Positions 2,790-63,396 are shown, counted from the first letter of the stretch. The stretch is 64,000 nt of DNA from Thermoplasmatota archaeon (GCA_018818785.1 JAHIRF010000005.1:275513-339512), one strand, 5' to 3'. A program made the numbers and translations. The notes: generated from the sequence alone by a model not told the origin.

Positions 2790-2884
2790 GGCGCGGAACT
2801 CCATGTGGAAACATGATATAGTGTGGATTCGATAATGGCGCAGTTCGGCGAAGCCGACAATCGCTGGATCATTTGGTGAACATC

Positions 2885-3421: not shown

Positions 3422-3575
3422 TTCGAATGTCTGGATGATCTTGTTTATCAGCAGACTGGCAGATATCTGTTCCGAAAGACAATAAAATCATAGAAACTGT
3501 TTTATAATTTCCTTTACCATTTCATCGCTGGTCGGGTGGGATGCACCCACCAATCCTGTTTAGGAGGTAAAAACT

Positions 3576-4027
3576 TGACATCAGCACCTGTTGGTAATCC
3601 CTCTAGGAACTGTGTTTCCTGCGGTCGTTCGATCTCTTGGGACGCGAATGTGTGCCCATATTGTGGCCACGATTTCAGGGTGGCAATGGCTGGACCTGCA
3701 GCTATGCAGAAGAAGGACTCGTCGATGCCGCTCATCGCTGGAGTGCTGTTGATAATCTGCAGCCTGGGTTACATCGTAATGGGTGGATGGATGATGGCCG
3801 CCGGGACCTCTCTAATGGGGTTCACCGAAGACATTGGCGGAGGCGCGGTCGCAGCGTGCGGCGGTCTGGTACTCGTCCTTGGCATATTGGTGCTCTTGGG
3901 CGGGGTGTTCGCGATCAAGAAGACGCACTTCGGCCTCGCATTGGTCGCGTCGATACTCTCGCTCGGAACCGGCCTTGGTATCGTCGCCCTGATATTGGTC
4001 ATCATTTCGAAGGACGAGTTCACGTAG
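3576..4027 (+). CDS. Zinc-ribbon domain membrane protein, tandem paralog 2
   Basis: CVSCGRSISWDANVCPYCGHDFRVAMAGP followed by TM helices. AGGAGGT at 3562-3568 lies 7 nt upstream of TTG 3576, so that start is preferred over the ORF-track GTG at 3536. Confidence 0.55.
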
Positions 4028-4152
4028 GCCCCACGTTCCAAACCTCTTCAACAAACCACTCCACTCATTTTCCAAGAGATCAGCGTTAGAAAGCTATTTT
4101 AATCGTAAAATCTCTTTAAGCATCAGAAGTCATTGAGTCTGGAGGCAATCAG

Positions 4153-4695
4153 TTGGATGACCTGAGTGGGGATATTGACAGACCATGTATTGTATGTGGT
4201 CGACCAAAGGCATCAAATTTCAGGTATTGTCCGCACTGCGGTGATCCGATGGATTCATCATATGGTGCGGATCAATCGCAGACGAGTTATCTCAGAATCG
4301 GTGGTGCGCTGGTCGTCATCTCATCAATATTGACACTCGTTTTCGTCATCTTCTACCGATCATACTATGAGGTCGATTACTCGCGGTATATCCCGGAAAC
4401 ATACCAATCCTTGCTGAACGTTTTGTTATTCATGCACGTCGTCTCCGGGGGTGCAGGAATCCTGGGCGGCACCCTTGCTCTGCTGAAAACGAGATACCGC
4501 TTGTCTCTGGTTCTCTGTCTAGCAAGCTCACTCGGATTGGCCTTCATGTTGTCGCTCGCAGGATCGGCACTGGTCGCCATATCCAAGAACGATTTCAGTG
4601 AGGCGAGATTGAAGAAGAATGTCGATTGGCTGGACAACGGACCTGCATCTGGAGACCAACTCGAACACAGCATCATGGCGCGCAGGGGTGGATGA
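4153..4695 (+). CDS. Zinc-ribbon domain membrane protein, tandem paralog 3
   Basis: CIVCGRPKASNFRYCPHCGDP followed by TM helices. TTG start, with GGAGG 8 nt upstream. Confidence 0.55.
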   Translation: MDDLSGDIDRPCIVCGRPKASNFRYCPHCGDPMDSSYGADQSQTSYLRIGGALVVISSILTLVFVIFYRSYYEVDYSRYIPETYQSLLNVLLFMHVVSGGAGILGGTLALLKTRYRLSLVLCLASSLGLAFMLSLAGSALVAISKNDFSEARLKKNVDWLDNGPASGDQLEHSIMARRGG

Positions 4696-4696
4696 G

Positions 4697-5203
4697 ATGC
4701 AGTCATCGATCTCCAAAGAACCACAACACTGCATTGATTGTGACCTGGAGGTGCCCGACGGTTCCAGGTTCTGCCCGCATTGCGGCTTCAATCTCAGAGT
4801 CCTCACTGAAGAGCTCACGACTCAGAACAGGGATGATGACCTGCTCATAATCTCAGGGATCCTCCTCATACTGATAGGAATATCAACGGCTGTGAGCTCA
4901 GCCCTCATGGTCTATCACTATGTCCAGGTATATGATGAGGTCAGCGGTCTAATCGCCCTCCTGTTGATGCAGCTAATGGTGCTCATCCTCATCGGCGGCA
5001 TCACAGCCGCAGGCGGGACTCGTGCGATGACTGGTAACAACTTCTCCTTCGTGATCGTATGCAGTATCCTCGCCCTGTCGAGCCACTTTGCATTGTCATT
5101 GGTTTCATACTATGACTACAGTTCATTCGGCTCCTATGGCGTAATAATCGGTCTGGCCGCTCTCATATTCATAGTGTCCATCCGGGATAGATTCGTGAGT
5201 TGA
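4697..5203 (+). CDS. Zinc-ribbon domain membrane protein, tandem paralog 4
   Basis: CIDCDLEVPDGSRFCPHCGFNLRV followed by TM helices. ATG 4697 lies immediately after the paralog-3 stop (4693-4695); the upstream part of ORF 4619.. overlaps paralog 3 and is probably not translated. Confidence 0.5.
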   Translation: MQSSISKEPQHCIDCDLEVPDGSRFCPHCGFNLRVLTEELTTQNRDDDLLIISGILLILIGISTAVSSALMVYHYVQVYDEVSGLIALLLMQLMVLILIGGITAAGGTRAMTGNNFSFVIVCSILALSSHFALSLVSYYDYSSFGSYGVIIGLAALIFIVSIRDRFVS

Positions 5204-5231: not shown

Positions 5232-6170
5232 TCAGATCCTCTTTATCATGCCTAGCTCAGGCTCGTAGACATCGCCCTTGTCGAGCAGGTTCGCGACGAT
5301 CTCTTCTAGGCGTACCTTGTCGATCTTCTTCGACTTCGCTGCCTCGACCAGCTTGTCCCATTGCGCCCCTTTGCCACCGGTGTTCAGGCTGTCGATGAGT
5401 GCGAGTACGGTGCCATCCTCGTCCACGCCGACCTTGACATCGCTCATCTCGTCCTCGCCGGAGACCTGCTCCTTCTTGGCGGCTGCTGGCCGTGGCTTCT
5501 GCTTCGGGGTCACACGCGGCGGCTCGCTCTCCTCAGCATGGTTCGACCACTTGTCTGGAAGGACCGACCTGAGCGCTTCCCGCACAGAGTTCCTGAATCT
5601 TTCGAGATCGATATCCTTGTAGTACTCGACCGCCCTGACGACTCCATCGGCAAGGTTCTCCGGATATCCGAGCTTCATGAGTTCGCCGACGCTCGGTTCC
5701 GCCATCTGCATCGCGTCCCTGACAGCGTCGATCCTGACCAGCGTGCTCTTTGCCGCCTCGAGGATCCAATAATCCCTCATCTCGGCGTCGACCTCGACGA
5801 CGTTCTCGGGCCTGATGCTGAGGTACTTCACACCTTCCTCCGGTGAATACGCCCTGCTCTTCCCGACGACGGCCGCGAACGCAGGTGGCGACATCTTCGA
5901 CAGGGACCTCGCAGCGGTCGGTTGATACTCACCGGCTGATATGTAGAAAGTACCTGTCGGGTCCGTCACCCTCGCCCTGTACCTCGACTTCCCGTCCCCA
6001 CCGACGTCTTCTATGTCTGTGGCCACGCCGACGATCATCATCCTGTTGACCTTCGCGCCGAGTGGGGTGATTATGTACGACGCGGGCTTCTCGCCCTCGC
6101 CCGTGTATTCCAATGTGGATGAGTTGTACTCCTCGGCGAATACCCGCCACGCGACCTCGCGTGCGTTCAT
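5232..6170 (-). CDS. RPA32-like single-stranded DNA-binding subunit (OB fold plus C-terminal winged helix), translationally coupled to RPA1
   Basis: Starts MNAREVAW at ATG 6170..6168, overlapping the RPA1 stop (ATGA). It has an OB-fold-like region and a C-terminal wH-like tail (KVRLEEIVANLLDKGDVYEP). The long R/G/H-rich N-terminal extension of ORF 5232..6809 is the shadow frame of the RPA1 gene. Confidence 0.5.
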   Translation of the reverse strand: MNAREVAWRVFAEEYNSSTLEYTGEGEKPASYIITPLGAKVNRMMIVGVATDIEDVGGDGKSRYRARVTDPTGTFYISAGEYQPTAARSLSKMSPPAFAAVVGKSRAYSPEEGVKYLSIRPENVVEVDAEMRDYWILEAAKSTLVRIDAVRDAMQMAEPSVGELMKLGYPENLADGVVRAVEYYKDIDLERFRNSVREALRSVLPDKWSNHAEESEPPRVTPKQKPRPAAAKKEQVSGEDEMSDVKVGVDEDGTVLALIDSLNTGGKGAQWDKLVEAAKSKKIDKVRLEEIVANLLDKGDVYEPELGMIKRI

Positions 6171-7486
6171 CTGTTCTCCTCCAGGTCGATAAGGAGTTTC
6201 TCGACTTCCTGTTTGACATCGTCGAACCCGAACCTGGCGTCCCTGACAATCATCGATAGGCCGTAGTCGTCGGATGTCACGTTCCCGGAGAGGGTGACGA
6301 CCTTCAGCATCAGACGCTCCTCGATGATGTCCTTGACGACATCGAAGTTCATGGCCTGCTTCGCCTTCTCCATGGATTCGTCCAGGGTCGTGTCGGCCAG
6401 GCTCTCCGTGAGCTCGCGCCCTATGACCACGCTCACCGCTCCACTGCCATCGTCCACTATTGCCTTGATCCTCAGGTCCGGCACACCGTCCACGCGTCCG
6501 TGCACCTTGCACATGCTCTTCTGGAGCGCGCGCTTGCATTCCGGGCATCTCATGATGAGTCCGGAACCGTCCCGCACCTCTATCAGGGCGCCCTTGATCG
6601 TCACATCGGCCGCCCCTCCCTTGGAGACTATGTCTGATATCATGGACATCCCGGTCTTCTGAAGCTCCTCGATCGTCGGGAACTTCTCCTTCACCTTGGT
6701 GACCTCTGCGCGGTCGTCGAAGTTGAGCTGTGGGATGCCCCTCCATCCCTTCACAGTTCCTTTCGATATCCTGAGTATGTCCCCCTGCTTCACTTTGAAA
6801 TCGGACCATGCGGTGAACTGCACCTTGCCAGTCTCATCAGCGATCACGCCGGAGAAGATCTTCTTCGGCTCGCCCTTCACCATGACGTCCCGATCCTCGA
6901 CCGAGAGCACGCGCCCCTTGGTCTGCACATAGCCCATGCCCTCTCTGAGGTCATTTATGGTAACGATCTTCGGAGGACCGTCGGCGACCTGTATCTCCCC
7001 GATCGTGGACTCGTCCTCCTTTTTGATGGTCACCCTGTTGCCGAAATTGATCTGCACCCGTCCCTGGTACTCCCTCGAGTACGCACCCTTGACGGAGATG
7101 ACCTCCCCCTTCGACAGCTGCAGCCCCTCGGTCTCCCAGGCGGTGTATGGGAGGGTCGTGGACTCGTCACCTACGAATCCGTAGATGATCCTCTTCTTCT
7201 CCCCCTTCGAAGTGATCTCCTTGTCATTCGCCGAGAGCACCTTCGCGACGAAATCGACGTTCGGCTCGTTGGGTCTTATCTCAGCCAACTTCCTCTGAAA
7301 ACCCACGGAGAAGTCCTTCATCTCGCCACCGTATCTCTTCACGATGGTCTCCTTGGCTTTAGGTATGCTGAGCCTGTAGACGTCGACGTATTTCTTCAGC
7401 TCTTCAGCGATCTCATCCTCAGACAACTTATCCCCGAGCGCCCTGGCGATCTCTTGTACGTGGGGCGCTAAATTCTCTATCTGCAT
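6167..7486 (-). CDS. Replication protein A large subunit (RPA1-like, several OB folds plus C4 zinc finger)
   Basis: Repeated OB-fold segments and the zinc motif RCPECKRALQKSMCKVHG. The likely start is MQIEN at 7486 rather than the ORF-track start at 7558. Confidence 0.75.
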   Translation of the reverse strand: MQIENLAPHVQEIARALGDKLSEDEIAEELKKYVDVYRLSIPKAKETIVKRYGGEMKDFSVGFQRKLAEIRPNEPNVDFVAKVLSANDKEITSKGEKKRIIYGFVGDESTTLPYTAWETEGLQLSKGEVISVKGAYSREYQGRVQINFGNRVTIKKEDESTIGEIQVADGPPKIVTINDLREGMGYVQTKGRVLSVEDRDVMVKGEPKKIFSGVIADETGKVQFTAWSDFKVKQGDILRISKGTVKGWRGIPQLNFDDRAEVTKVKEKFPTIEELQKTGMSMISDIVSKGGAADVTIKGALIEVRDGSGLIMRCPECKRALQKSMCKVHGRVDGVPDLRIKAIVDDGSGAVSVVIGRELTESLADTTLDESMEKAKQAMNFDVVKDIIEERLMLKVVTLSGNVTSDDYGLSMIVRDARFGFDDVKQEVEKLLIDLEENR

Positions 7487-9949: not shown

Positions 9950-10354
9950 ATGGCTACAGAATTTGAGCTGAGTGTGACTGGGTCGACAAGGAATATGTTG
10001 GATGCAATTGGTGTTCTCGCGGACAAACTGATCAATCTTGACACGATCGCCACCGCGAAGGTAGACGACAGATATGTGATCCGGTTCCTCACCGGATGCG
10101 AGGAGGAATGCAGGACAACGTTCATGAAGGCGGACCTGCCGTTCACAGAGAGGAAGGTCCTGGTTCTAGACGTCCACGACCGCCCTGGACAATGGTTGAG
10201 AGCGGCACGGTGCCTGATGGATCAGGGCATTGAACTTGAGGAGAGCTATCTGCTCACGAAGACCAATGGCAAGCTCCGTTTCGTCTTCGGAGTGAGTGAT
10301 TACCAACGCGCGAAGGCCATTGCCAGTCAGATGACGGATTGCTCCACTGATTGA
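9950..10354 (+). CDS. Hypothetical small cytoplasmic protein (possible ACT-like regulatory domain)
   Basis: 134-aa ORF with reasonable codon usage, sitting immediately upstream of cooT; no clear motif. Confidence 0.3.
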   Translation: MATEFELSVTGSTRNMLDAIGVLADKLINLDTIATAKVDDRYVIRFLTGCEEECRTTFMKADLPFTERKVLVLDVHDRPGQWLRAARCLMDQGIELEESYLLTKTNGKLRFVFGVSDYQRAKAIASQMTDCSTD

Positions 10355-10387: not shown

Positions 10388-10585
10388 ATGTGTGAGTCTG
10401 CAGTGTATCTTATGAAAGGCTCGGAGAAATCGTTGATCAAGGCCGAAACCTCGAAGATACTTATCGAGGACGGCATGGTGGTCTGCATCGGGGCGTTCGG
10501 CGAGAAGATAGAGGTGGAGAACGCAGAGCTCTCCGAGATCAACCTGATGAAGCACGAGATCATACTGCGCCCCAAGAAGGGATGA
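10388..10585 (+). CDS. cooT: CooT-like small nickel-binding protein
   Basis: 65 aa beginning MCESAVYL; the Cys2 N-terminus and the size are typical of CooT. Its stop overlaps the cooC start (ATGA at 10582-10585). Confidence 0.55.
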   Translation: MCESAVYLMKGSEKSLIKAETSKILIEDGMVVCIGAFGEKIEVENAELSEINLMKHEIILRPKKG

Positions 10586-11388
10586 GTCGGGGTCCCATGA
10601 AAGTGGCCGTAGTAGGCAAGGGTGGGGTCGGCAAGACCACAGTGGCCGGCTCAATGGCTAGGATCTGGGCCAGGGGTGGACTGCGAGTCTTGGCGGTCGA
10701 TGCCGATCCAGCGGCACACCTCCATTCGGTTCTGGGTATAGCGCGTTCTGAGATGCCGCATCCGATTTCCGAGGAGCTTGATCTGATAGAGGAGCGGACC
10801 GGGGCAAGGCCCGGGACATCTCAAGGGCCTTTCTTCAAGCTCAATCCTAGGGTAGAGGATATCCCGGACAGGTATTCCAAGCTAGGATCCGACGGAGTAT
10901 CACTGCTCGTCACCGGGACCATAAAGGCTGCTGGCAGCGGCTGTTTCTGTCCCGAAAATGCCATCTTACGCAGCCTTCTCGAACACATAATACTCGAGCG
11001 TGGTGACGCAGTGGTGGTCGACATGGAAGCCGGCCTGGAACAGTTCGGGCGCGCAACATGTCGTGGGGTTGACATGCTTCTTATCGTGATAGAGCCAGGA
11101 TCGAGGTCCATGGAGACGGCCGCCAGGATGGCCGAGCTCTCGCACGAGATGGGTGTCAAGAACATGTCCGTCGTCGCCAACCGTGTCAGGGGCAAGGAGG
11201 AAGCCGATGCTGTGGCAGAGCTCCTCGCCTCGCATTCGTTGAAGCTGGATTACGTTCTGCCATACTCCGAAGCGGTCGCCAAGGCCGACATGCTCGGCAT
11301 ATCGCCATTGGACCACGGAGACGACAACGAGTGGCTCTCCTCCGTCCGACGATTATCGAACGGAATGCTAGGTTCAGACCGAATCTAG
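10582..11388 (+). CDS. cooC: CO dehydrogenase nickel-insertion ATPase CooC (MinD/ParA family)
   Basis: Deviant Walker A motif VAVVGKGGVGKTT and the CooC-type Ni-binding GSGCFC(P) motif. Confidence 0.85.
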   Translation: MSRGPMKVAVVGKGGVGKTTVAGSMARIWARGGLRVLAVDADPAAHLHSVLGIARSEMPHPISEELDLIEERTGARPGTSQGPFFKLNPRVEDIPDRYSKLGSDGVSLLVTGTIKAAGSGCFCPENAILRSLLEHIILERGDAVVVDMEAGLEQFGRATCRGVDMLLIVIEPGSRSMETAARMAELSHEMGVKNMSVVANRVRGKEEADAVAELLASHSLKLDYVLPYSEAVAKADMLGISPLDHGDDNEWLSSVRRLSNGMLGSDRI

Positions 11389-11744
11389 GAGCGGTCATCT
11401 CTGATACGCCCCAACAATCTAGACTTGAATAACATCGGCAACAGCCGTCCTTTTCCGGTGATGACAACGTATTAGTAGCATCATATTCATTCGTCAGATG
11501 TCGAGTGCAGACTTGATGGCATCGGGGAGCCAGATGTCTGTTTGCGTGGGGATTAAGGTGAACGGGAGACTCGGAGACTGTACAAGTGACAGCTGTCCCG
11601 TCAGCCGGGCAGCGAACTATGAATCATTTGCGAAGCAGCAGCTGTCGATGAATCTTCGCAATTCGTTCGAAGATATCTCATGAGACCATTCGATTGCCGA
11701 TCATCCCATTCCTACCCTGCGGGGATCACCAGGGGTAGTCTGAG

Positions 11745-14700
11745 ATGGAGAAGGAGATAGGGTCCAGCAACAAGGGTGGCGCGAGTGCAAAATCATCATC
11801 GAAGTGGTCGTGCGACTGCTGGGATGAGAGTTGTCGGACCATGTTCACCGACGTTCACGATGAGGGTGTATGCACGGTCTTTGACCGTGTATCCGACCAG
11901 GGAGCGCAGTGCAGGTTCGGTTCGCTCGGACTCTGTTGCAGGATATGTCTGGAGGGCCCGTGCCGGATAAACCCTATGGGGAAGGAACCGACGTCCGGGA
12001 TATGCGGGGCTAAGGATTACACGATAGTCGCGCGAAACTTGGATAGGATGATCGTCGGGGGAACCGCATCCCATTCATGTCATGGGAAAGAGATATCCCA
12101 TGTGCTCCTGGAGGTATCCGAGGGGAAGATCACTGATTACAGGGTCACCGATGAATCGAAGCTTGAAAAGGTGGCAGCGCGTCTTGGGATCGATAAGCAA
12201 GGCAAGGGGATGCAGGCGATGGCCCGCGAGGTCGCCCTGGCTGCGATGGAGGATTATTCGAGATATTCTGCAGAGCCTCTCACTTTCCTGAGGACGACGG
12301 TGACCAAGTCCCGCATGGGGAACTGGGACTTCAATGCGGTGCTGCCTTCGAACATCAATACCACCATATCCGATCTGATGCACAGGACGGCCATGGGGGT
12401 CGATGCCGACCCGGTTCCTCTCCTGTTCGGCGGAGTGAAGTGTGCTCTGGCGGACTACGCAGGCGCTCAGATATCGTCCGACCTGAGCGACATTCTGTTC
12501 GGCACGCCCAAGATCGTGCTCAGTGAAGTGAACCTCAATGTGCTCGAGAAGGATGCGGTCAATGTCGCTGTCCATGGTCACAACCCGCTCCTGAGCGACA
12601 TAATGGTGGATGTGGCGCGAGAGATGACGGATGTCGCCAAGAGTGTAGGGGCGTCGCGCTTCAACATCGTGGGGGTGTGCTGCACAGGGAACGAGATACT
12701 CATGCGAAAGGGTGTGCCGATCGCTTCGAATGTGCTCTCCCAGGAACTGGTCGTCCTCTCCGGCATGCTGGATGCCATGGTCCTCGACTACCAGTGCTTC
12801 ATGCCGTCTCTCTCGTCTCTCACGAGATGCACCCACACCCGGTTGATATCCACCGAGGAGGTCGCGAGACTGGTGGGTGACACACACATAGAGCTGACTC
12901 CGGGGCGTGCGCGAACCTCAGCGAAGGAGATACTCACGATAGCCGCGGAGGCTTTCAAGCATCGCACCGGAACGAGGACTTTGCCTGCCGCGAAGCCTCA
13001 GCGTGTAGTTGCCGGTTTCAGCCTCGAGCAGATGAGACAATTGTTCGCGACCAAGAATCCAGAGGACCCGTTTCAGCACTTGGTCGACGGCATAATGCAC
13101 GGCAGCATCCGGGGCATCGCGCTCTTCGCCGGCTGCAAGAGCACGAAGGCAAAGGATGACCGTGATGTGCTCACGATCGCCAAGGAGCTTCTGAAGCGGG
13201 ATGTCCTCGTGATGGCGACTGGCTGCAACGCGATCGAGCTGGCCAAGGCAGGATTCATGGATCCAGACAAGGTCGGCGAGCTGGTCGGAGAGGGTCTTCA
13301 ATCGTTCCTTTCAGAGCTAGCGAAGGCTGCTGATGTGAAAGGCGGGCTCCCGTGTGTATGGCATATCGGATCCTGCGTGGACAACCCGCGCTTCTCCAAC
13401 CTGGCGACCGAGGTCGCCAACCGGCTGGACGTGGACATCGACAGGATCCCCTTCGTGGTGGCCGCCCCCGAGGCGATGCATGAGAAGGCCGTTTCTATAG
13501 GCACATGGGCGGTCACGATGGGCTTCCCCGTTCATGTGGGCACGATCAATTACATCTATGGCAGCACGCTCGTGACTGAAGTGTTGGAGAACACTGCGCG
13601 CGATGTCTTCGGAGGATATTTCATCTTCGAGAAGGACCCGCTCGAGGCCGCGAAGAGGATGTACTCCGCGATAGAGTACCGCCGTTGGAAACTCGATCTG
13701 TCGGATGCCGAGGTCGAGCGCGCGACCCATCTCGATGCGAAGAAGGGGACCGTCAAGAAGGAGGAGCTGTTCAAGATGGCGATCGAGGGATCGATAATCG
13801 CCACCGGCTACGCCGACCTGGTCCTGAGCCACGCGCTTCGGAAGCATGGTCCAGACAAGTTGGTGGAGTTCCCCGAGACTGGTTACCAGCTGCCGAGCAT
13901 CTTCGCATGGCTTGGCAAGAACTGCAACCGTCTGGGCGACCTACCTCAGCTCCTCGGAGAGGCGAGGAGGAAGATCGTCGAGGAGCCCACGTATGAAGCG
14001 GCTGTGGCTTCAGGCGAGGCCACGATGATAGCCGCCGAGATCGTGGAGGCTCTGAAGTACATAGACAACCCCGCGCCATACGAAGGCACACCGTATTGCG
14101 GGTTCGTGCCAGACAGGATACTGCGACAGCTCGGGATAGCGTTCGTGGACGACACCATACCTGGAGCTGCGGTGTTCGTGGGACGGGCCAGCGACCCGAA
14201 GAAACTCTCGGCGATGATCCGTGATTGCCAGAACAAAGGCATGTTGATCGTCGCGAGCTATGACATCATCAAGCAGCTCAAGGACGAGAACATCTCCATG
14301 GGTCTCGACAGGATGCTCTACCCGGTGGGCGAGTTCACACAGATCATACACGGACTCAACTTCGCCATCAGGGCAGCGCTCTCATTCGGAGGCATCCAGA
14401 AGGGCGACAGGGAGGGACTCTCCAACTACCTGTCGAAGCGCCCCAAGGTGTTCGTTCTTCAGCTGGGGCCGCTCGACTTCATCAAGGTGGCAGCAGAGTT
14501 CGCTGTCCTGTTCAACGGGTCGCCGACCATAACGGACCAGGATGTGGAGCCGATCCCTGACAAGTATGTGGTGCAGAAGAACCTCGATGAGATGATATCG
14601 ACAGCGATAGAGGTGAGGGGCTGCAAGATCAAGCTCGGCGCCATGGATCTTCCCGTGCCTTATGGACCCGCCTTCGAAGGTGAGACCATCAGGAGGCCGG

Positions 14701-15884
14701 ACATGCATATCGAGGCCGGCGGCCCATCCAAGACTCTCGCATTCGAACTCCTCAGGATGCGCACATCGGAGGAGATAACCGACGGGAACGTGACTCTGAT
14801 CGGGAAGGACATCGACGAGATGGAGGAAGGCTCGTCGACCAACCTGGGGATATTCGTCAGCGTGTACGGCAAGAACATGCAGAAGGATTTCGAATCCGTG
14901 CTGGAGCGCAGGATACACCAATTCGCCAACTTCGCGGAAGGGTTGTGGCACACGGGCCAGAGGAACCTCCTATGGGTCAGGATGAGCAAGACCTCGGTCA
15001 AGGCAGGGTTGAGGCTCAAGCACATCGGGGACATACTGGTCACGAAGCTCAAGCAGGAGTTCGGTGCCATCGTTTCGAAGATAGAGGTCACGATCGTCAC
15101 AGACGAGGATGAGCTCAGGAAGCATCTCGACGAGGCGAAGATGGTCTATGCCGAGAGGGATGCCAGGATCGCCGACTTGGTGGACGAGAATGTCGACATA
15201 TTCTACACCTGTACCTTGTGCCAGAGTTTCGCGCCCGGGCATGTATGCATCATCACGCCCGAGAGGCTGGGACTCTGTGGCGCCATCAACTGGTTGGATG
15301 CGAAAGCGTCCTATCAGATAGCGCCGACCGGGCCGAACAGCCCGGTATCCAAGAAGGAGACCATAGACGAGGTCAAGGGCCAATGGACGGGCGTGAACGA
15401 AGCGGTCAAGGAGAAGACCCAGGGCAAGCTGCAGCAGTTCAGCGCATACACCATGGTCGAGGACCCCATGACCTCATGCGGTTGTTTCGAATGCATAGTC
15501 GCGGTCTCGCCGGACCTCCAGGGGGTCGTGGTCGTGAACAGGGAACATGCTGGCATGACCCCGGTGGGCATGACCTTCTCGACGCTCGCAGGGTCCGTCG
15601 GAGGAGGGATACAGACGCCGGGGTTCATTGGCGTGGGCAGGAAATACCTCACCAGCAAGAAGTTCATCTCGGCAGACGGTGGTTTCATCAGGATCGTCTG
15701 GATGCCCAAGAACCTCAAGGAGGCCATGAAGGACGAGCTGAAGAAACGGGCAGAGGAGATCGGGGTGCCCGACTTCCTGGATAAGATCGCGGACGAGAGC
15801 GTCGCGAGGACGCCTGACGAGCTGACTAGCTGGCTGGTCGAGGTGAACCATCCTGTCATGGGGATGTCACCGATGATCAAGTGA
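11745..15884 (+). CDS. acsAB: Fused Ni-CODH (CooS/AcsA-type) and acetyl-CoA synthase (full-length AcsB) in one 1379-aa polypeptide
   Basis: The N-terminal half carries the CODH cluster motifs QCRFGSLGLCCRICLEGPCRINP (B/D-cluster), GVCCTGNE and HIGSCVDN (C-cluster). The C-terminal ~725 aa align along their length with Moorella-type AcsB: ATGYADLVL, WHTGQRN, CTLCQSFAPGHVCIITPERLGLCGAINW and the A-cluster Cys-Gly-Cys in SCGCFECIV. There is no stop or frameshift between the halves. Confidence 0.85.
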   Translation: MEKEIGSSNKGGASAKSSSKWSCDCWDESCRTMFTDVHDEGVCTVFDRVSDQGAQCRFGSLGLCCRICLEGPCRINPMGKEPTSGICGAKDYTIVARNLDRMIVGGTASHSCHGKEISHVLLEVSEGKITDYRVTDESKLEKVAARLGIDKQGKGMQAMAREVALAAMEDYSRYSAEPLTFLRTTVTKSRMGNWDFNAVLPSNINTTISDLMHRTAMGVDADPVPLLFGGVKCALADYAGAQISSDLSDILFGTPKIVLSEVNLNVLEKDAVNVAVHGHNPLLSDIMVDVAREMTDVAKSVGASRFNIVGVCCTGNEILMRKGVPIASNVLSQELVVLSGMLDAMVLDYQCFMPSLSSLTRCTHTRLISTEEVARLVGDTHIELTPGRARTSAKEILTIAAEAFKHRTGTRTLPAAKPQRVVAGFSLEQMRQLFATKNPEDPFQHLVDGIMHGSIRGIALFAGCKSTKAKDDRDVLTIAKELLKRDVLVMATGCNAIELAKAGFMDPDKVGELVGEGLQSFLSELAKAADVKGGLPCVWHIGSCVDNPRFSNLATEVANRLDVDIDRIPFVVAAPEAMHEKAVSIGTWAVTMGFPVHVGTINYIYGSTLVTEVLENTARDVFGGYFIFEKDPLEAAKRMYSAIEYRRWKLDLSDAEVERATHLDAKKGTVKKEELFKMAIEGSIIATGYADLVLSHALRKHGPDKLVEFPETGYQLPSIFAWLGKNCNRLGDLPQLLGEARRKIVEEPTYEAAVASGEATMIAAEIVEALKYIDNPAPYEGTPYCGFVPDRILRQLGIAFVDDTIPGAAVFVGRASDPKKLSAMIRDCQNKGMLIVASYDIIKQLKDENISMGLDRMLYPVGEFTQIIHGLNFAIRAALSFGGIQKGDREGLSNYLSKRPKVFVLQLGPLDFIKVAAEFAVLFNGSPTITDQDVEPIPDKYVVQKNLDEMISTAIEVRGCKIKLGAMDLPVPYGPAFEGETIRRPDMHIEAGGPSKTLAFELLRMRTSEEITDGNVTLIGKDIDEMEEGSSTNLGIFVSVYGKNMQKDFESVLERRIHQFANFAEGLWHTGQRNLLWVRMSKTSVKAGLRLKHIGDILVTKLKQEFGAIVSKIEVTIVTDEDELRKHLDEAKMVYAERDARIADLVDENVDIFYTCTLCQSFAPGHVCIITPERLGLCGAINWLDAKASYQIAPTGPNSPVSKKETIDEVKGQWTGVNEAVKEKTQGKLQQFSAYTMVEDPMTSCGCFECIVAVSPDLQGVVVVNREHAGMTPVGMTFSTLAGSVGGGIQTPGFIGVGRKYLTSKKFISADGGFIRIVWMPKNLKEAMKDELKKRAEEIGVPDFLDKIADESVARTPDELTSWLVEVNHPVMGMSPMIK

Positions 15885-16858
15885 TGTGTGTGGGGGATCG
15901 ACACATGGGGTTTGAAGGAGCGAAAGAGAGTTTTTCGGGCCGGATCAAGGAGGTCGTCATAGGTGCTACAGACGAGCATGGCGGTAGCAGGAGCAGGCGG
16001 CTCACGGTGGGTGGATCGAACGGTCTTCCGTTCCATTCATTCGAGAGCGAGATGCCGCATAAGCCACTGATAGCCATGGACATTGTCGATACGTTGCGCA
16101 TGGTCTCCGACACGCAGCTGAAGTCCATGGGCGATGTCGTGAAGGACCCCGTGGAGTGGGCCAAGCGCTGTGAGAAGGAATGGGGCGCGGACATCTGTGT
16201 GCTGAAGCTGCAGTCGGCGAACCCCGAGGAGGAGAACCGTTCGGTCGAGGAGTGCGAGTCCCTCTTCAAGGAAGTCCTGAAGGCGGTGTCCCTTCCGCTC
16301 TTCGTATACGGGTGCGGGTTCGAGGAGAAGGATGCCAAGCTGATGGAGGCGATCTCGAACGCTGGCAAGGGCGAGCGCCTGTTCATCGGTCTGGCGGAGG
16401 AGAAGGCATACAAGTCCCTGACGGCTGCGGCCATGGCGAACGGCCATGGTCTGGTGGCCTTCTCGAACCTCGATATCAACCTCGCGAAACAGATCAACAT
16501 ATTGCTGATGGATTTCGGCATGAAGCCCGAGAACATCCTCATGGACCCGCTCATGGCACCGCTCGGCATGGGTCTGGAATACTCATACTCCGTCATCGAG
16601 CGCCTGCGAATAGGCGCCCTGATGGGTGACCCGGTCCTCCAGATGCCGATGATCTGCGATTGCTCATGTGCGTGGACCGTGCCAGAGGTGCTCGAGGAGG
16701 ACGATGGCAAGGGGACGCAGGTGGAGCGAGGCGTCAATTGGGAGGTCATCACCGCCGAGGCCGCTCTGATGGCGGGAGCGGCCCTCGTCATAACCAGGCA
16801 TCCAGAATCCGTCAAGCATATCAGGGCGACGATCGACGATCTCTACGGGGGTGTGTGA
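15881..16858 (+). CDS. acsD: Corrinoid iron-sulfur protein small subunit (AcsD/CdhD-type)
   Basis: 325 aa, TIM-barrel-type CFeSP delta-like sequence; ATGA overlap with the acsAB stop. Confidence 0.8.
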   Translation: MMCVGDRHMGFEGAKESFSGRIKEVVIGATDEHGGSRSRRLTVGGSNGLPFHSFESEMPHKPLIAMDIVDTLRMVSDTQLKSMGDVVKDPVEWAKRCEKEWGADICVLKLQSANPEEENRSVEECESLFKEVLKAVSLPLFVYGCGFEEKDAKLMEAISNAGKGERLFIGLAEEKAYKSLTAAAMANGHGLVAFSNLDINLAKQINILLMDFGMKPENILMDPLMAPLGMGLEYSYSVIERLRIGALMGDPVLQMPMICDCSCAWTVPEVLEEDDGKGTQVERGVNWEVITAEAALMAGAALVITRHPESVKHIRATIDDLYGGV

Positions 16859-18184
16859 ATGCCCACCGCGATGGAGATATACAAGCTTCTCCCGAAGAAG
16901 AACTGCGGAGAGTGCAAGTTCCCCACATGTCTGGCGTTCGCGATGCAGCTCGCGAACCAGAAGGTCGCCCTCGAAGCCTGTCCGTATGTCAGTCCCGAGG
17001 CGAAGGCCGCGCTCGAGGAGAGCGGCGCCCCGCCCATCAGGCTCATGACGTTCGGCACTGGTGACATGGCAGTCAAGGTCGGCGACGAGACCCAGCTGTT
17101 CAGGCACGACAAGACGTTCTACAACCCCACGGTGATAGGTCTCATAGCCGACGATTCCTCAGGGTCACAAGGGATCAAGGACGGGGTCGCACTTGTGAAG
17201 TCGCTGTCCTTCGAGAGAGTCGGACAGAACATACGTGTCAACTCGATCGCGATCAGGCATTCGACCGGGGACCCGAAAGAATTCCTGGAAGGTGTGAAGC
17301 ACGCATCATCGGAGGGATTGCCGATGGTCCTGATGACCGAAGACCCGGGGCTGATGGGAGAGACGTCTGTCGCATGGCCCAAGAGGCCGTTGCTCTACAG
17401 GGCCACACCGGCCAACTTCGATGCGATGATCGAGGTGGCCAAGCGGTCTTCGTGCCCGCTCGTGATCGGGGGAGCAGCCACGCTTGACGAGCTCTCGCAG
17501 CTGTCAGAGCGGGCGAAGAAGGCGGGAGTCACGGACCTCGTCCTCGAACCGGTTCAGGGCACGTGCGCCCAGCTCCTCGAGAGCATGACAGTCGTGCGAA
17601 GGGCCGCTGTCAAGAAACATTTCCGCCCCTTGGGATATCCGACAATATCTGTGCTGGGGTCGTCTGATCTGGACAAGGGCAGGGCGACGATCGGCGTGGC
17701 GAAGTACTCGTCCATCGTGCTCATGGACGAGCTGTCCAGAGGGTTCGTCTTCCCCCTCATGGTCCTCAGGCAGAACATCTTCACCGACCCGCAGGTCCCC
17801 ATCCAGGTGAAGCCCGGATTGTACAAGGTGGGAGAGCCGAACGAGAAGTCTCCCGTCATGTTCACGACCAACTTCTCCTTGACATACTTCACCGTGCGCG
17901 CAGACATCGAGAAGAGCAAGATGCCCGCCTGGCTTCTGGTGATAGACACCGAGGGTCAGTCCGTCATGACCGCGTTCGCGGCAGGGAAGCTCACGCCGGA
18001 GTCGGTCACGGAGGCGATAGAGAAGGAGAAGGTCAAGGATGTCAGCAAGAGGAACGAGATCGTGATCCCCGGGATGGTGAGCAGGATGAGCGGCAAGCTC
18101 AACGAGCTCTCGGGGATGAAGGTGATTGTCGGCTCGCGGGAGTCCTCAGGCATACCCAAGATGATCAAGTCATTCAGCGGATAG
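16859..18184 (+). CDS. acsC: Corrinoid iron-sulfur protein large subunit (AcsC/CdhE-type)
   Basis: N-terminal 4Fe-4S motif KKNCGECKFPTCLAFAMQL...CPYV followed by TIM-barrel and B12-binding regions; starts 1 nt after the acsD stop. Confidence 0.8.
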   Translation: MPTAMEIYKLLPKKNCGECKFPTCLAFAMQLANQKVALEACPYVSPEAKAALEESGAPPIRLMTFGTGDMAVKVGDETQLFRHDKTFYNPTVIGLIADDSSGSQGIKDGVALVKSLSFERVGQNIRVNSIAIRHSTGDPKEFLEGVKHASSEGLPMVLMTEDPGLMGETSVAWPKRPLLYRATPANFDAMIEVAKRSSCPLVIGGAATLDELSQLSERAKKAGVTDLVLEPVQGTCAQLLESMTVVRRAAVKKHFRPLGYPTISVLGSSDLDKGRATIGVAKYSSIVLMDELSRGFVFPLMVLRQNIFTDPQVPIQVKPGLYKVGEPNEKSPVMFTTNFSLTYFTVRADIEKSKMPAWLLVIDTEGQSVMTAFAAGKLTPESVTEAIEKEKVKDVSKRNEIVIPGMVSRMSGKLNELSGMKVIVGSRESSGIPKMIKSFSG

Positions 18185-18186
18185 GC

Positions 18187-18939
18187 TCAGCGTCCCACCC
18201 GTTCAGATTCGACGGCCCTGCCGACATCGGAGAACGCGGGGTCGCTCGCTGGCATGTCCATGAGCGATTCAGTGTCCTTCGCGTGAGCGCACAGCCATGC
18301 CGACCCCCTCACGCTGTACACAGCATCGAACCTGTCACTCGAATATGACGACAGATCTTGTCCCTGGCCCAGCTGATCGACCACCAGGACCGTCCTGGAG
18401 ATGTTCAGGGCCATCTCCTCTGCGAGGTCCGCGATCCTGTTCGCGGCCGACAGCGACGATCTTGTCGTGTCGCAGAGGACGAACAGCACCTCTGTGGACC
18501 GTGTGGTTCTCCTGCTGAGGTGTTCCATCCCTGCCTCGTTGTCTATCACGACATGATCGTATCTCTCCGAGATCGAATCGATGAGGTTGCGTAGCATGTT
18601 GTTTATGAAACAGTAACATCCGGGTCCTTCGGGTCTGCCCATCGTGAGCAGGTCGAAACCGTCTCCCTCCCTGAGCGCCAGCCTGACCTGGTAGTCTATG
18701 TATTCCTGTTTCGACATGCTGGGTGGCGGCTCCTCGCCGTAGGATGCCAGCTCCTCTCTTATGTCTCCTAGGGTCCTTCCAGGTCCTTGTCCGAGCTTCG
18801 CGCCGAGGTTGTGATTCGAGTCGGCATCCACCGCGAGCACGACCTTCCCTGTCTTCCTGTTTAGATGCCTTATCGCCATCGCGCAGAACGTGGTCTTGCC
18901 AACTCCTCCCTTCCCGGCCACGGCTATCGTGTAGGTCAT
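18187..18939 (-). CDS. acsF: Second CooC-family nickel-insertion ATPase (AcsF-like)
   Basis: The true start is MTYTIAVAGKGGVGKTTF at ATG 18939, overlapping the RACo stop (ATGA). The long upstream part of ORF 18187..19299 is a shadow frame of the RACo gene. Confidence 0.8.
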   Translation of the reverse strand: MTYTIAVAGKGGVGKTTFCAMAIRHLNRKTGKVVLAVDADSNHNLGAKLGQGPGRTLGDIREELASYGEEPPPSMSKQEYIDYQVRLALREGDGFDLLTMGRPEGPGCYCFINNMLRNLIDSISERYDHVVIDNEAGMEHLSRRTTRSTEVLFVLCDTTRSSLSAANRIADLAEEMALNISRTVLVVDQLGQGQDLSSYSSDRFDAVYSVRGSAWLCAHAKDTESLMDMPASDPAFSDVGRAVESERVGR

Positions 18940-20846
18940 GCGACATCCCGCCAGTCGTTGGCATGGTTCGCACTGGGGAATCTTCCAAGATCCGTATGGG
19001 GGATGAACAGAGATGCGGAGAACTCCTCGTAGAATTCGTTGTCCACACTGAGTTCGAGATATGTCATCTTGTTCAGTATCTTCGATGTCTCCCGTCTCGC
19101 ATCCTTCGATACCAGCGCCAGCTTCGCCCCTCCCAGAGCTCCGTTGCCTATGAACCTGTACTTCTTCCTGGGAACATCCGGGAACATCCCCAGAGTCACG
19201 GCCCTGGTCATGTCCAGATGGAAGCCGAACCCTCCAGCGATGACTATGCTCGACAGGCTCCCCAGATCCTTCCCGGTCTTCCGCAACAATACGGAGCACG
19301 CGCCGTAGATGGCCGCCTTCGTCCTCAGGATGTTCTGCAGGTCCGCATCCGTTATCACGAGGTCCGAGGTGGCTCCTTCATGGAGACGCTCCTTCCTCTC
19401 TATGACATATTCCAGGCCTTCTTCACCGGTTCTCACCCTGTCACTGTCCCTTTCCTGTATCCTGGCCTTGCGGTCTATCACGCCTCTCGCATACATCTCC
19501 GCCATCAGGTCGACCAGGCCTGACCCGCAGACACCGATCGGGGCCCGGTCTCCTATCACATGATATTTCGCAGCGAGATCATCGTCTATCCTGAGCCTGT
19601 CTATCGCGCCGTCCATCGCCCTCACGCCGCAGGTGACCTCTCCCCCTTCGAACGCTGGTCCGGCCGAGCAAGAGCATGAGACCATCCAATCCCTGCATCC
19701 GAGGACCACCTCTCCGTTGGTGCCCACATCGATCAGGAGATGAGTCCTCTTCGATCTGTGCATCTCACTGGCCAACACATCCGCGATGACGTCCCCTCCT
19801 ACATACCCTGCTCTGGAGGGGAAGGTGAAGACCGAACCCGCTCCGTTCATCATCAATCCGAGGTCTTTGGCCTTCATCGGGGGAATGTGGTGAGTCACCG
19901 GGACGTACGGCTCCAGTCGGACATTGTCCGTCGATAGTCCGAGGAAGAACTGCGTCATCACGGTATTGCCCGCAATCGATGCAGCCACGATGTCCTGTCG
20001 TGAGAGGCGCTCGCCGTCCATCTCATTCCGTTCCTCCATGACTCTGCTTATGCACGAGTTCACCGTCTCTCTCGCCAATGACGTGAGTTCATCCAGTCCG
20101 TTTTCCTCACCGAACATCATTCTGGCAATCACATCATCGCCATGTGTCATCTGTCTGTTGAAGTCTGAAGCCGTCCCCAGAACCTCTCCTGTGTCGAGGT
20201 CGATGAGGTCGACGACGACCGTGGTCGTCCCTATGTCGACCGCGATCCCGACCGCACTCCCCCTTGTGTCCCCTGGCTCCACTCTGATTATCTCCACGGG
20301 CCCCGCCAGATCGGACCGGGTCGCAGTGACCTTCCATCTCCCGTCCCTCAACGCGGACGGCAGGTCTCTGAGACCTTCGAGCGAGATCTCGGGCCGTGCA
20401 TCGTCCATCGCACGCATCATCCTCTCTCGGTCCGCCAGGTTATCGGAGAGCGTCGCAGGATTCATCTCCAGGAAGCGTTTGGTCACCCAGGGGGTCGTCC
20501 GCTCAGGCATCTTCTGTACCGATTTCGTCACTATCTGGTGCTTTCCGAGCCTGTACCTCGGCAGCACATGGACGATCAGATCCCCTTCTATTCTGGAAGT
20601 GCATGCGAGTGCGATGCCTTCTCGAACCTCTTCTTCTGTCAGATGTTCGGACCCTTCGGTGATGGTCTTTCCGTCTATCTTCACCTTGCAGCGTCCGCAC
20701 TTGCCGCTCCCACCGCATACCGCATCGATCGGTATGCATGCCAGTCTGCCTGCCTCCAGCACTGTCGTTCCCCTATCGACGGTAACCTGCTTTCCATCCG
20801 GTCGGAACACCACCCTCAGATTGTTCCGCCCTTCGTCAGCTGTCAT
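18936..20846 (-). CDS. Reductive activator of corrinoid iron-sulfur protein (RACo/AcsV-like)
   Basis: 636 aa; N-terminal plant-type [2Fe-2S] ferredoxin motif CGGSGKCGRCKV...LAC followed by an ASKHA/DUF4445-like ATPase region. Confidence 0.75.
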   Translation of the reverse strand: MTADEGRNNLRVVFRPDGKQVTVDRGTTVLEAGRLACIPIDAVCGGSGKCGRCKVKIDGKTITEGSEHLTEEEVREGIALACTSRIEGDLIVHVLPRYRLGKHQIVTKSVQKMPERTTPWVTKRFLEMNPATLSDNLADRERMMRAMDDARPEISLEGLRDLPSALRDGRWKVTATRSDLAGPVEIIRVEPGDTRGSAVGIAVDIGTTTVVVDLIDLDTGEVLGTASDFNRQMTHGDDVIARMMFGEENGLDELTSLARETVNSCISRVMEERNEMDGERLSRQDIVAASIAGNTVMTQFFLGLSTDNVRLEPYVPVTHHIPPMKAKDLGLMMNGAGSVFTFPSRAGYVGGDVIADVLASEMHRSKRTHLLIDVGTNGEVVLGCRDWMVSCSCSAGPAFEGGEVTCGVRAMDGAIDRLRIDDDLAAKYHVIGDRAPIGVCGSGLVDLMAEMYARGVIDRKARIQERDSDRVRTGEEGLEYVIERKERLHEGATSDLVITDADLQNILRTKAAIYGACSVLLRKTGKDLGSLSSIVIAGGFGFHLDMTRAVTLGMFPDVPRKKYRFIGNGALGGAKLALVSKDARRETSKILNKMTYLELSVDNEFYEEFSASLFIPHTDLGRFPSANHANDWRDVA

Positions 20847-20987
20847 GCTGGACCGGCCGGCACAGTAACCACTTGCGCCTCTAATAACTATTATGCACGG
20901 TATGCGGAAGCCTACGATGTGCCGTATGATGCGAACATTTCATAAGTCCTGAATGAGTACGTTTCCTCCGGAGAAAGGGGGTTCGGC

Positions 20988-21764
20988 TTGATAGTCGTGG
21001 GTGAGAGGATCAACGGACAATTTCCTCTGGTTTCGAAAGCGATAGATGCCAGGGACGAGAAGACGATTCAGGGCATGGCGTTGGAACAGATATCTGCAGG
21101 AGCGGACGTCCTCGACGTGAACACTGGTCCGGGGAGGGATGACGGTCCTGAAGCCATGGCCTGGCTCGTCAAGACCATCCAGGACGCGGTCGATATACGG
21201 CTTGCGATCGATTCTCCGGGGTTGAAGGTTCAGCAGGCAGGCTTGACGGCGTGCAAGCGCACGCCTCTGATCAACTCCACGACTGCCGAGGAGAAGCGCA
21301 TGGAGAAGTTCTTCCCATTGGCTCTCGAACACAATGCAGAGATCGTCTGCCTGACGATAAACGAGAAAGGCATTCCCAATTCTGTGGATGGACGGACGGA
21401 GACTGCGATGCTCCTGCTCACAAATGCCATGGACAAAGGGATCCCACCAGAGAACCTGTATCTGGACCCGGTCGTGCTGCCGATCACAGCCGCTCAGGAT
21501 CAGTGCCCCGTCGTCTGCGACGCCATCACTGCGTTCAGGGCACTCAACACTCCTCCTCCAAAGACAATAGTCGGGCTGAGCAATGTATCAAGCGGCGCGG
21601 AGGAGCGCAACCTGCTGAACAGGACATATCTCGGCATGCTCCTCGGTCGCGGTCTGGACGCTGCGATCGTTGACCCGCTCGACCTCGAGTTGGTCAAGGA
21701 GCTCAAGGCCGCCGAGGTCCTGTTGAACCACAAGCTGTACGCCCATTCGTTCCTGAGGGCATGA
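20988..21764 (+). CDS. acsE: Methyltetrahydrofolate:corrinoid iron-sulfur protein methyltransferase (AcsE)
   Basis: MIVVGERINGQF N-terminus (compare Moorella MLIIGERING) and a pterin-binding TIM-barrel sequence; TTG start with a GGAGA/GGGGG upstream. Confidence 0.8.
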   Translation: MIVVGERINGQFPLVSKAIDARDEKTIQGMALEQISAGADVLDVNTGPGRDDGPEAMAWLVKTIQDAVDIRLAIDSPGLKVQQAGLTACKRTPLINSTTAEEKRMEKFFPLALEHNAEIVCLTINEKGIPNSVDGRTETAMLLLTNAMDKGIPPENLYLDPVVLPITAAQDQCPVVCDAITAFRALNTPPPKTIVGLSNVSSGAEERNLLNRTYLGMLLGRGLDAAIVDPLDLELVKELKAAEVLLNHKLYAHSFLRA

Positions 21765-22417
21765 GGTGGACCGTGATGATCGGGGGCAGGGACAGCCATG
21801 ACGATGCTCTTCGGGTCGGATGGGACAGTCTGAAAGAGTGCGGCATCAGCGAGTTCTCCCCTGCTGGAGCGACGGTGGACACAGACGCTTCTCAGCTGAG
21901 ACTGAAGGTGATGGATCGCATCTGCACGATCGACCTCAGCTCGGAGAGGATGAGCTACGAAGATGGTGAACGGGAAGAGGTCAGCGCCTACCTCCGGATA
22001 CTGATCCTTCATTATCTAGTGGGTGCGAGGGACAAGTCTCCATCGGGTGCCATGGTCTCATTCAGGGAGTTCGAGGGCGGTGCGCTCTACTACTCCGCAT
22101 TCAAGAAGAGGACGATCGATGTTCTGACTGGCACATTCGGTGATGACGCCGATAGCCTTCGGAGAGCTGGCGAAAGGTTGGGGGCGACCACACTCATGAG
22201 TGGGTCCGTATCGTTCCGTGTGATGTTCTTCCCAAAGCTCCCGGTCGACGTGTTGTTTTGGCTGGGTGACGAGGAGGTACCATCATCCGCGAACATACTC
22301 TTCGACGAGACCGCGGGGAAGATGATCGCGACCGAAGACCTGTCCGCACTCGCAGGCGTCCTATGTATCCGATTGATCAAATCGTCGTCCAAGGCCGAGC
22401 CTGTCGGATCGAAATAG
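21761..22417 (+). CDS. DUF3786 domain protein (often linked to acs clusters)
   Basis: 218 aa; ATGA overlap with acsE; sequence character matches DUF3786 (e.g. FKKRTIDVLTGTFGDD, VMFFPKLPVDVLFW). Confidence 0.55.
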   Translation: MRWTVMIGGRDSHDDALRVGWDSLKECGISEFSPAGATVDTDASQLRLKVMDRICTIDLSSERMSYEDGEREEVSAYLRILILHYLVGARDKSPSGAMVSFREFEGGALYYSAFKKRTIDVLTGTFGDDADSLRRAGERLGATTLMSGSVSFRVMFFPKLPVDVLFWLGDEEVPSSANILFDETAGKMIATEDLSALAGVLCIRLIKSSSKAEPVGSK

Positions 22418-43179: not shown

Positions 43180-43218
43180 CGTGCACACATCCTCCCAGAT
43201 GGAGATTCCAACCATGGC

Positions 43219-43587: not shown

Positions 43588-43615
43588 TGACGGATCCTCC
43601 TTTTGGCTCAGAGAT

Positions 43616-43870: not shown

Positions 43871-43994
43871 AACTATCCTCGAATCGCCTCGGCAGACGAC
43901 CTCCGTCATAGTAACGGCGTTTAGTGATGGGGTTTTTTGTTGATAAGGATTTTCCCATCGCAGTATGGTTCTTGCCCTCGCTCCCCCTCATCGG

Positions 43995-55339: not shown

Positions 55340-55433
55340 CAGTCGCCCCGGCGGTGAAGCTTTGTGCTCTAATAATTAACTTGCCGTTTCACAATGGATC
55401 GAATTCGGATCACTGGCTCTTATGTGGTGAGAT

Positions 55434-57731: not shown

Positions 57732-57772
57732 TCGATCGAATACCGATCATCCGAAGCGATTTCCCGCGATCG

Positions 57773-63392: not shown

Positions 63393-63396
63393 TATT

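Follow-up and report, generated by a model that had tools for sequence, protein, structure and literature searches.

How does an archaeal chromosome come to carry the Wood-Ljungdahl pathway's carbonyl branch in its bacterial form? The question is raised by a 64,000-nucleotide stretch of a Thermoplasmatota archaeon assembly (GCA_018818785.1, JAHIRF010000005.1:275513-339512; hereafter the window), in which positions 10388-22417 hold an acs gene cluster for a carbon monoxide dehydrogenase (CODH) together with an acetyl-CoA synthase (ACS). A preliminary description of the sequence had seen here a bacterial-type module on an archaeal backbone, and had proposed either inter-domain transfer or an archaeal lineage to which a bacterial-type ACS is native. 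We conclude that the region is very probably the resident carbonyl-branch operon of a Thermoplasmata archaeon, with a CODH/ACS of bacterial architecture whose mechanism we model on the Moorella and Carboxydothermus enzymes. The CODH/ACS identity follows from the curated cut-offs exceeded for CODH, ACS, AcsC, AcsD and AcsE, and from the alignment of both halves of a fused AcsAB protein with solved structures.

Gene calls were based on a map of open reading frames (ORFs), on Pfam and NCBIfam scans, and on direct reading of the junction sequences. All nine genes of the preliminary description were recovered within 10388-22417, at the coordinates it had given; seven of the nine match both Pfam and NCBIfam, DUF3786 and CooT being the exceptions. 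The cluster is laid out as follows, with the two parts of acsAB and its linker on lines of their own.

10388..10585, plus strand: cooT, nickel chaperone for CODH (PF10133 CooT, 50.4 bits against a cut-off of 27)
10582..11388, plus strand: cooC (CooC1), P-loop ATPase for nickel insertion into the CODH C-cluster (CbiA/ParA/ArsA-type P-loop matches)
11745-15884, plus strand: fused acsAB, one ORF of 1379 amino acids (Prismane at residues 63-632, CODH_A_N at 694-773, CdhC at 969-1123, ACS_CODH_B_C at 1135-1378)
11745..13700, plus strand: acsA part of acsAB (residues 1 to ~652), CooS-type Ni-CODH (Prismane; TIGR01702)
13701..13760, plus strand: fusion linker (residues ~652-672; from an alignment of 12 fused homologues)
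13761..15884, plus strand: acsB part of acsAB (residues 673-1379), three-domain acetyl-CoA synthase including the N-terminal A1 domain (PF18537, PF03598, PF19436; NF040764)
15881..16858, plus strand: acsD, small subunit of the corrinoid iron-sulfur protein, 325 amino acids (NF003376, 359 bits against 280; PF03599)
16859..18184, plus strand: acsC, large subunit of the corrinoid iron-sulfur protein, starting with a 4Fe-4S domain (NF003195, 516 bits against 306; PF04060 and PF03599)
18187..18939, minus strand: second CooC-family ATPase (CooC2, AcsF-like), ATG at 18939 (P-loop ATPase matches)
18936..20846, minus strand: RACo/AcsV, ATP-dependent reductive activase of the corrinoid protein (Fer2, RACo_linker, Raco_middle, RACo_C_ter)
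20988..21764, plus strand: acsE, methyl-tetrahydrofolate:corrinoid/Fe-S protein methyltransferase, TTG start (PRK07535, 281.5 bits against 259; Pterin_bind)
21761..22417, plus strand: DUF3786 protein (PF12654, 159 bits)

Coupling by ATGA overlaps, which had been claimed for four junctions, is read at three of them: cooT/cooC at 10582, the minus-strand start of CooC2 and stop of RACo at 18936, and acsE/DUF3786 at 21761. The fourth, acsAB/acsD at 15881, reads GTGATG and gives a GTGA or TGATG overlap, while acsD and acsC abut directly as TGAATG. In Firmicutes and Spirochaetes, cooC genes lying between acsA and acsB are the closest bacterial matches of CooC1 (42-47%); the best bacterial matches of CooC2 adjoin RACo in Actinomycetota and Thermoguttaceae, and we presume CooC2 to be AcsF, maturing the A-cluster of ACS. 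DUF3786 also adjoins RACo or acsE in Treponema, Acetobacterium, a Nitrospirae metagenome-assembled genome (MAG) and the locus L077, and is a recurrent accessory of bacterial-type acs clusters.

The module is of the bacterial type and not of the archaeal Cdh type. Its CODH half scores 663 bits with TIGR01702 (cut-off 478) and only 56.6 bits with the CdhA model TIGR00314 (cut-off 781), and reaches only 32-42 bits against the CdhA chains in the PDB. Residues 24-651 align with CODH-II of C. hydrogenoformans and conserve the motifs CRFGSLGLCCRICLEGPC, HGHNP, CCTGNE, DYQC, FAGC, TGC, GSC and HEKA, whose Cys, His and Lys residues we take to correspond to those that bind the B-, C- and D-clusters of CODH-II and to its catalytic lysine. 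The ACS half scores 964 bits with NF040764 (cut-off 800) and has the A1 domain (PF18537) at residues 694-773; residues 672-1378 align end to end with residues 17-728 of C. hydrogenoformans ACS (7zkj_B, 812 bits), residues 672-961 align with residues 17-311 of an A1 domain on its own (9fu4_B). In the motifs of the A-cluster, CQSFAPGHVCIITPERLGLCG and TSCGCFE, the pattern is identical to that of the C. hydrogenoformans enzyme. AcsD is short, of bacterial length, and its 227 bits with the cdhD model TIGR00381 are below the cut-off of 253. The RACo ORF contains four of the four RACo Pfam domains above their cut-offs, and no match to the CdhB family was found among the nine ORFs with Pfam or NCBIfam. 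AcsE exceeds the curated PRK07535 cut-off and scores 167 bits with the stricter NF040758 model, below its cut-off of 370. Because the archaeal subunit models fail, AcsE reaches a curated cut-off and the four RACo domains are present, the earlier account of a bacterial AcsABCDE organisation with full-length AcsB, AcsE and RACo was correct.

In one respect the locus differs from every bacterium sampled, where acsA and acsB are separate ORFs. Both genes had been recognised in the preliminary description under the label acsAB, which did not state explicitly that they form a single fused ORF; its interpretation is unaffected by the addition, as it is by the corrected junction at 15881. A single ORF is likewise present in the Thermoplasmata relatives checked directly (L001, L008, L015), and at other Thermoplasmata loci one stop-free stretch matches both halves. 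Across 12 fused homologues the linker region consists of a conserved EYRRWKL at the CODH end, 16-30 variable residues, and a conserved LFKMAIEGSIIATGYA at the start of A1, a pattern that would be expected of a maintained fusion. The α2β2 arrangement of separate AcsA and AcsB polypeptides thus does not apply here, and no domain has been lost. An N-terminal Cys3 motif is present in the window's AcsAB as C24, C26 and C30 within KWSCDCWDESC.

Not all relatives keep the gene intact. The Methanomassiliicoccales MAG E29_bin30 (L031, 11800-11960) falls inside the fused clade described below and yet has two ORFs, separated by a TGA, four bases, and an ATG in another frame; either secondary fission or an indel would account for this split. 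An apparent CODH-less, N-terminally truncated ACS in CP070767 (L033, 9887-10010) was rejected as an artefact of a masked run of 100 Ns. Two fused AcsAB homologues of ~1895 amino acids (P0079, P0098) carry an intein (Intein_splicing PF14890, LAGLIDADG_3 PF14528). Three other AcsB-type proteins of the representative library (P0128, P0129 and P0130; 1209-1276 amino acids) have the ACS at their N-terminal end and ~450-550 extra C-terminal residues, and would represent a different kind of ACS fusion; P0128 and P0129 fall among the bacterial sequences in our tree, and P0130 was outside the tree sampling. We know of no characterised fused enzyme with an intrachain CO tunnel and no dissociable ACS. 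The fused AcsAB is the one under-explored point of this locus, and lends itself to structural and biochemical study of an obligatorily coupled CODH/ACS.

Is the cluster a newcomer to its chromosome? A 12-kb module of bacterial architecture could be a genomic island lately taken from a bacterium, and the cluster's GC content (0.58-0.59) is slightly above that of the neighbouring DNA (0.53-0.57). The compositional comparison that the preliminary description had proposed nonetheless places the cluster with its surroundings: computed in 4-kb windows, its tetranucleotide profile correlates at 0.90-0.93 with that of the remaining sequence, where the flanks give 0.85-0.93. In codon usage, the correlation between the acs genes and 22 flanking genes is r=0.959, that between two halves of the flank genes 0.968, and GC at third codon positions (GC3) is 0.752 in acs genes and 0.749 in flank genes. 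The gene order uS2-Memo-...-methyltransferase-orf134-cooT-cooC-acsAB-acsD-acsC-cooC2-RACo-acsE-DUF3786-...-orf203-orf169-KaiC-EamA recurs in ~30 Thermoplasmata MAGs from unrelated studies, two of which are closed chromosomes (CP070732 and CP070748). The locus and its neighbours are thus the same in genomes that share only 60-75% identity in the housekeeping proteins of the flanks, and in a set of 17 relatives mean identity in the acs proteins rises and falls with mean identity in the flank proteins (Pearson 0.80). The best identities to the sampled bacterial genomes, a set other than Carboxydothermus and Moorella, are only ~39-46% for AcsB and 33-38% for AcsA, and the cluster borders are free of mobile-element genes. 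Recent acquisition from a bacterium is therefore very improbable.

An assembly or binning artefact, with bacterial acs DNA attached to a contig of archaeal origin, is less credible still. The data are of metagenome type and the composition of the window shifts in its last 9 kb, but composition is continuous across either border of the cluster, and many independent assemblies from different studies, the two closed chromosomes included, show the same left and right junctions. Since composition, synteny and co-divergence agree, the cluster is neither a recent transfer nor a chimera, and has been vertically inherited in this archaeal lineage for a long time. Of the two explanations first proposed, composition, synteny and the archaeal clades described below thus favour an archaeal lineage with a native bacterial-type ACS; the alternative fails as a recent event, and a very old transfer is compatible with the same data.

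The lineage in question is probably an uncultured Thermoplasmata archaeon in or next to the order UBA10834/Ca. Gimiplasmatales, as judged from acs gene trees and synteny. Its AcsAB is 98% identical to that of Thermoplasmata archaeon MAG55 (JACZKW01) and 75-82% identical to those of ~30 other Thermoplasmata MAGs, UBA10834 and RBG_19FT_COMBO_56_21 among them. In the AcsB tree, the window joins UBA10834 (L011) and RBG_19FT_COMBO_56_21 (L015) in a clade with a bootstrap of 100, and synteny is common to them.

Deeper relationships were addressed with neighbour-joining trees on Kimura-corrected distances (60-100 bootstraps); the nearest unfused relatives came from an exhaustive HMMER search through 1.8 billion representative proteins. 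These trees, built for AcsA-E and RACo, include the phylogenetic comparison that had been suggested for AcsB-E, and each recovers an archaeal clade that is bacterial-type and distinct from the bacterial phyla sampled. The split between AcsB-type sequences and CdhC has a bootstrap of 100. All fused archaeal sequences form one clade (bootstrap 100), whose labelled members are Thermoplasmata, Methanomassiliicoccales, Bathyarchaeia and Halobacteriota. For the other subunits, the archaeal sequences also form single clades (AcsA 100, AcsC 99, AcsD 100, AcsE 99, RACo 86). Two unfused proteins, P0124 from Methanomassiliicoccaceae (730 amino acids, 51% identity) and P0125 (727 amino acids, 48% identity; encoded in the full, unfused acs cluster of L077), branch basal to the fused clade with bootstraps of 63 and 70. 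The tie of this enlarged archaeal clade to Firmicutes/Spirochaetes is unsupported (bootstrap 21-44), so no sampled bacterial phylum is credible as a donor.

For the deep origin of the module, a very old transfer and an ancestral "archaeal AcsB" both fit these rough trees, which leave the root unplaced. In the first case, a bacterial-type acs operon would have entered an archaeal ancestor long ago, become fused, and then been dispersed over Thermoplasmata, Methanomassiliicoccales, Bathyarchaeia and other groups, in part from archaeon to archaeon; we regard the chances of such an ancient transfer as evenly balanced. When rooted with CdhC, the tree puts the archaeal clade inside the AcsB-type radiation, weakly beside Firmicutes/Spirochaetes (bootstrap 44 and 21), and near-identical fused proteins are labelled as coming from different archaeal phyla (P0113 from Bathyarchaeia, P0114 from Halobacteriota). 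Inter-domain transfers, if rare, have reportedly occurred. A 2026 preprint (bioRxiv 10.64898/2026.07.07.736967) that counts Thermoplasmatota among the archaeal holders of AcsB weighs a root between bacterial and archaeal AcsB against lateral transfer, which one of its two roots implies. Against the ancient transfer, none of the bacterial phyla sampled comes out as sister group with support, and the other root, which divides bacterial from archaeal AcsB, fits the data equally well; neighbour-joining trees cannot place the root. A bolder proposal, which we offer as speculative and rather doubtful, is that the fused AcsAB marks an old archaea-specific branch of the bacterial-type enzyme, with unfused Methanomassiliicoccaceae-like forms at its base and occasional secondary fission (L031). 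This branch would descend from a three-domain ACS older than the last universal common ancestor (LUCA) and not from a bacterial donor, and the conserved block upstream of acsAB would perhaps be a hitherto undescribed regulatory site of the lineage.

What would the resident operon do? By analogy with the bacterial enzymes, the CODH half of AcsAB would reduce CO2 to CO at the C-cluster with reduced ferredoxin, and the CO would pass by an internal tunnel, through A1, to the A-cluster in the ACS half of the same polypeptide. AcsE would transfer the methyl group of methyl-tetrahydrofolate to the cobalt of the corrinoid iron-sulfur protein AcsCD, which would in turn methylate the A-cluster, where methyl, CO and CoA would combine reversibly into acetyl-CoA. 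RACo would re-reduce oxidised corrinoid, CooT and CooC1 would load nickel into CODH, and CooC2 (AcsF-like) would load it into ACS. The acsA/acsB fusion is the only architectural departure from the bacterial model; it would fix CODH and ACS at 1:1, and the quaternary form is likely an (AcsAB)2 homodimer.

The CODH/ACS reaction is reversible, and the enzyme might run mainly in reverse, cleaving acetyl-CoA for the oxidation of acetate or organic carbon, or might convert the methyl groups of methylated amines to acetyl-CoA (methylotrophic acetogenesis), with no autotrophic CO2 fixation in either case. Methylotrophic acetogenesis has been proposed for COMBO-56-21 MAGs with mttB, mttC and mtmB (PMC11264602), and a mixotrophic lifestyle for the order (PMC9239135). 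Nothing in the window discriminates direction, however, and its 64 kb are without methyltransferase or hydrogenase genes. We consider this alternative a real but somewhat less than even prospect.

Several points weigh against the reading of the region as a resident, bacterial-type Wood-Ljungdahl operon. The direction of flux, whether acetyl-CoA synthesis or cleavage, and the C1 carrier are inferred; no methyl-branch genes are present within the 64-kb window, and the link to tetrahydrofolate (H4F) draws on literature for related MAGs. The RACo ORF scores 595 bits with the NCBIfam AcsV model NF040756, below its cut-off of 800. The trees are neighbour-joining trees on Kimura-corrected distances, with a limited bacterial sampling that was partly chosen by similarity to the query, and the order-level placement of the host comes from acs gene trees and synteny, not from a genome phylogeny.

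The operon's regulation may be reflected in the 356-bp spacer between cooC and acsAB, whose length is kept in relatives. An alignment of 17 related Thermoplasmata spacers reveals conserved non-coding blocks at 11434..11534 (plus strand), ~240-280 nt upstream of the acsAB start: a core at 11464-11505 (ACAACGTATTAGTAGCATCATATTCATTCGTCAGATGTCGAG), with a TATA-like TTAGTA followed by ATTCGTC..ATGCCGAG, and shorter blocks at 11434-11447 and 11527-11534. In their simplest reading these blocks are likely an archaeal TATA-type promoter and operator, with a leader of ~250 nt. No Rfam family was matched in the spacer or anywhere else in the window. A small ORF in the spacer (11498-11683) was rejected, as relatives show ORFs of 3-75 amino acids or no ATG at that position. 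Upstream of cooT lies one further small gene.

9950..10354, plus strand: orf134, small ACT-like protein of 134 amino acids (weak Pfam ACT match, E=0.0028)

Related Thermoplasmata loci that cover the position have orf134 as the next gene upstream of cooT, with identities of 55-72% (98% in L001); it was not detected in the bacterial acs loci sampled. It may be a lineage-specific regulator or accessory of the operon, and its membership in the module is inferred only.

The genes flanking the cluster had been named as archaeal, and family matches bear this out for RpoK, uS2, Nep1/EMG1, PurP and an archaeosortase-family protein. The uS2 gene is of the archaeal/eukaryotic type (TIGR01012, 291 bits against 211.5), and two of the others are placed as follows.

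493-669: RpoK (NF002208, 99.7 bits against 57)
55434-56411: exosortase/archaeosortase-signature protein

An RPA gene that had been assigned to 5232-6200 on the minus strand could not be confirmed, as no OB-fold or RPA family was matched there. Positions 5232-6809 (minus strand) form an ORF of 525 amino acids, whose first 200 residues are Arg/Gly/His-rich and look non-coding; its conserved part begins at about residue 204 (gene ~5232-6200) and gives only a weak match to an MCM-like C-terminal winged helix.

Other parts of the window hold features of separate interest. Downstream of a gene for a DUF2085 membrane protein, four paralogues stand in tandem at 2873-5203; all are small membrane proteins that carry a zinc-ribbon motif (C-x2-C...CPYCG) at the N-terminus and have two to four membrane helices by prediction. 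A TnpB/Cas12f-like ORF at 34664-35881 (PF07282 Cas12f1-like_TNB, E=5e-17) is 12 kb away from the acs genes, and no other gene of the mobile-element type was found in the window. A LarC-type nickel-insertion protein (TIGR00299, 102.6 bits, cut-off 90) is encoded at 41926-44723 (minus strand) beside a DsrE-like protein and a cysteine desulfurase (Aminotran_5), and the group may have to do with Ni or Fe-S cofactor supply. The end of the window, 55000-64000, has a GC content of 0.46-0.49 against ~0.56 elsewhere, a tetranucleotide correlation of 0.41-0.55 and a GC3 of 0.527 against 0.75. Besides the archaeosortase-family protein, it encodes four glycosyltransferases (GT4/GT1, GT2), a polysaccharide flippase (Polysacc_synt) and a large membrane protein, and is probably a surface-glycan island, foreign or fast-evolving.

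Much of this has precedent. ACS/CODH was noted in UBA10834 MAGs by Zinke et al., and the order, named Ca. Gimiplasmatales, is described as using the Wood-Ljungdahl pathway in work cited in PMC9239135. For the genus COMBO-56-21, acsA-E were reported together with Fhs, FolD and MTHFR in the study that proposed methylotrophic acetogenesis (PMC11264602), and a bacterial-type H4F pathway was reported in one Methanomassiliicoccales MAG. The trait is therefore already known: the order has been described with it, the distribution of AcsB has been documented at the level of phyla, and even the gene fusion is on record. What the window contributes is a confirmation with a clean map of the locus; it is not a discovery. 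Its relevance lies in carbon cycling in anoxic sediments, and in the debate over whether the ancestral acetyl-CoA synthase had an A1 domain.

Among the closest known systems are those of the Ca. Gimiplasmatales (UBA10834)/COMBO-56-21 and related MAGs, which share with the window the fused gene (77-82% identity), the operon order and the chromosomal neighbourhood, and for which acsA-E and an H4F methyl branch are reported in the literature. The window differs from them as a distinct species or genus-level lineage, its nearest MAG being JACZKW01 (98%); clostripain-like C11 genes lie upstream or downstream of the cluster, varying among the related MAGs. The same CODH-ACS fusion is on record for RBG_13_57_23 in Supplementary Table 1 of Inoue et al. 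2019, which corresponds to our locus L023 (75% identity), and the N-terminal Cys3 motif is found in the window as well; the record is a table entry, without functional or evolutionary treatment.

The archaeal acetyl-CoA decarbonylase/synthase (ACDS; CdhABCDE, for instance of Methanosarcina and Methanoperedens) performs the same chemistry with a homologous A2-A3 ACS core, which is 42-43% identical to the window's over residues 966-1372 (357 bits to 9c0s_E). Unlike ACDS, whose CdhC is without A1, the window encodes an A1-bearing ACS, a separate AcsE, RACo and a short AcsD, and its cluster has neither a CdhA-type alpha subunit (~800 amino acids) nor, among the nine ORFs, a match to CdhB. With the CODH/ACS of Carboxydothermus hydrogenoformans and Moorella thermoacetica (PDB 7zkj, 1mjg, 1oao), on the other hand, the two catalytic proteins match domain for domain, residues 29-657 of the CODH half aligning to 31-658 at about 645 bits, and the accessory set of AcsCD, AcsE, a probable RACo/AcsV and CooC/AcsF is shared. 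What sets the window apart from these bacterial systems is that acsA and acsB form one ORF, joined by a linker of ~20 residues, and that the host is an archaeon.

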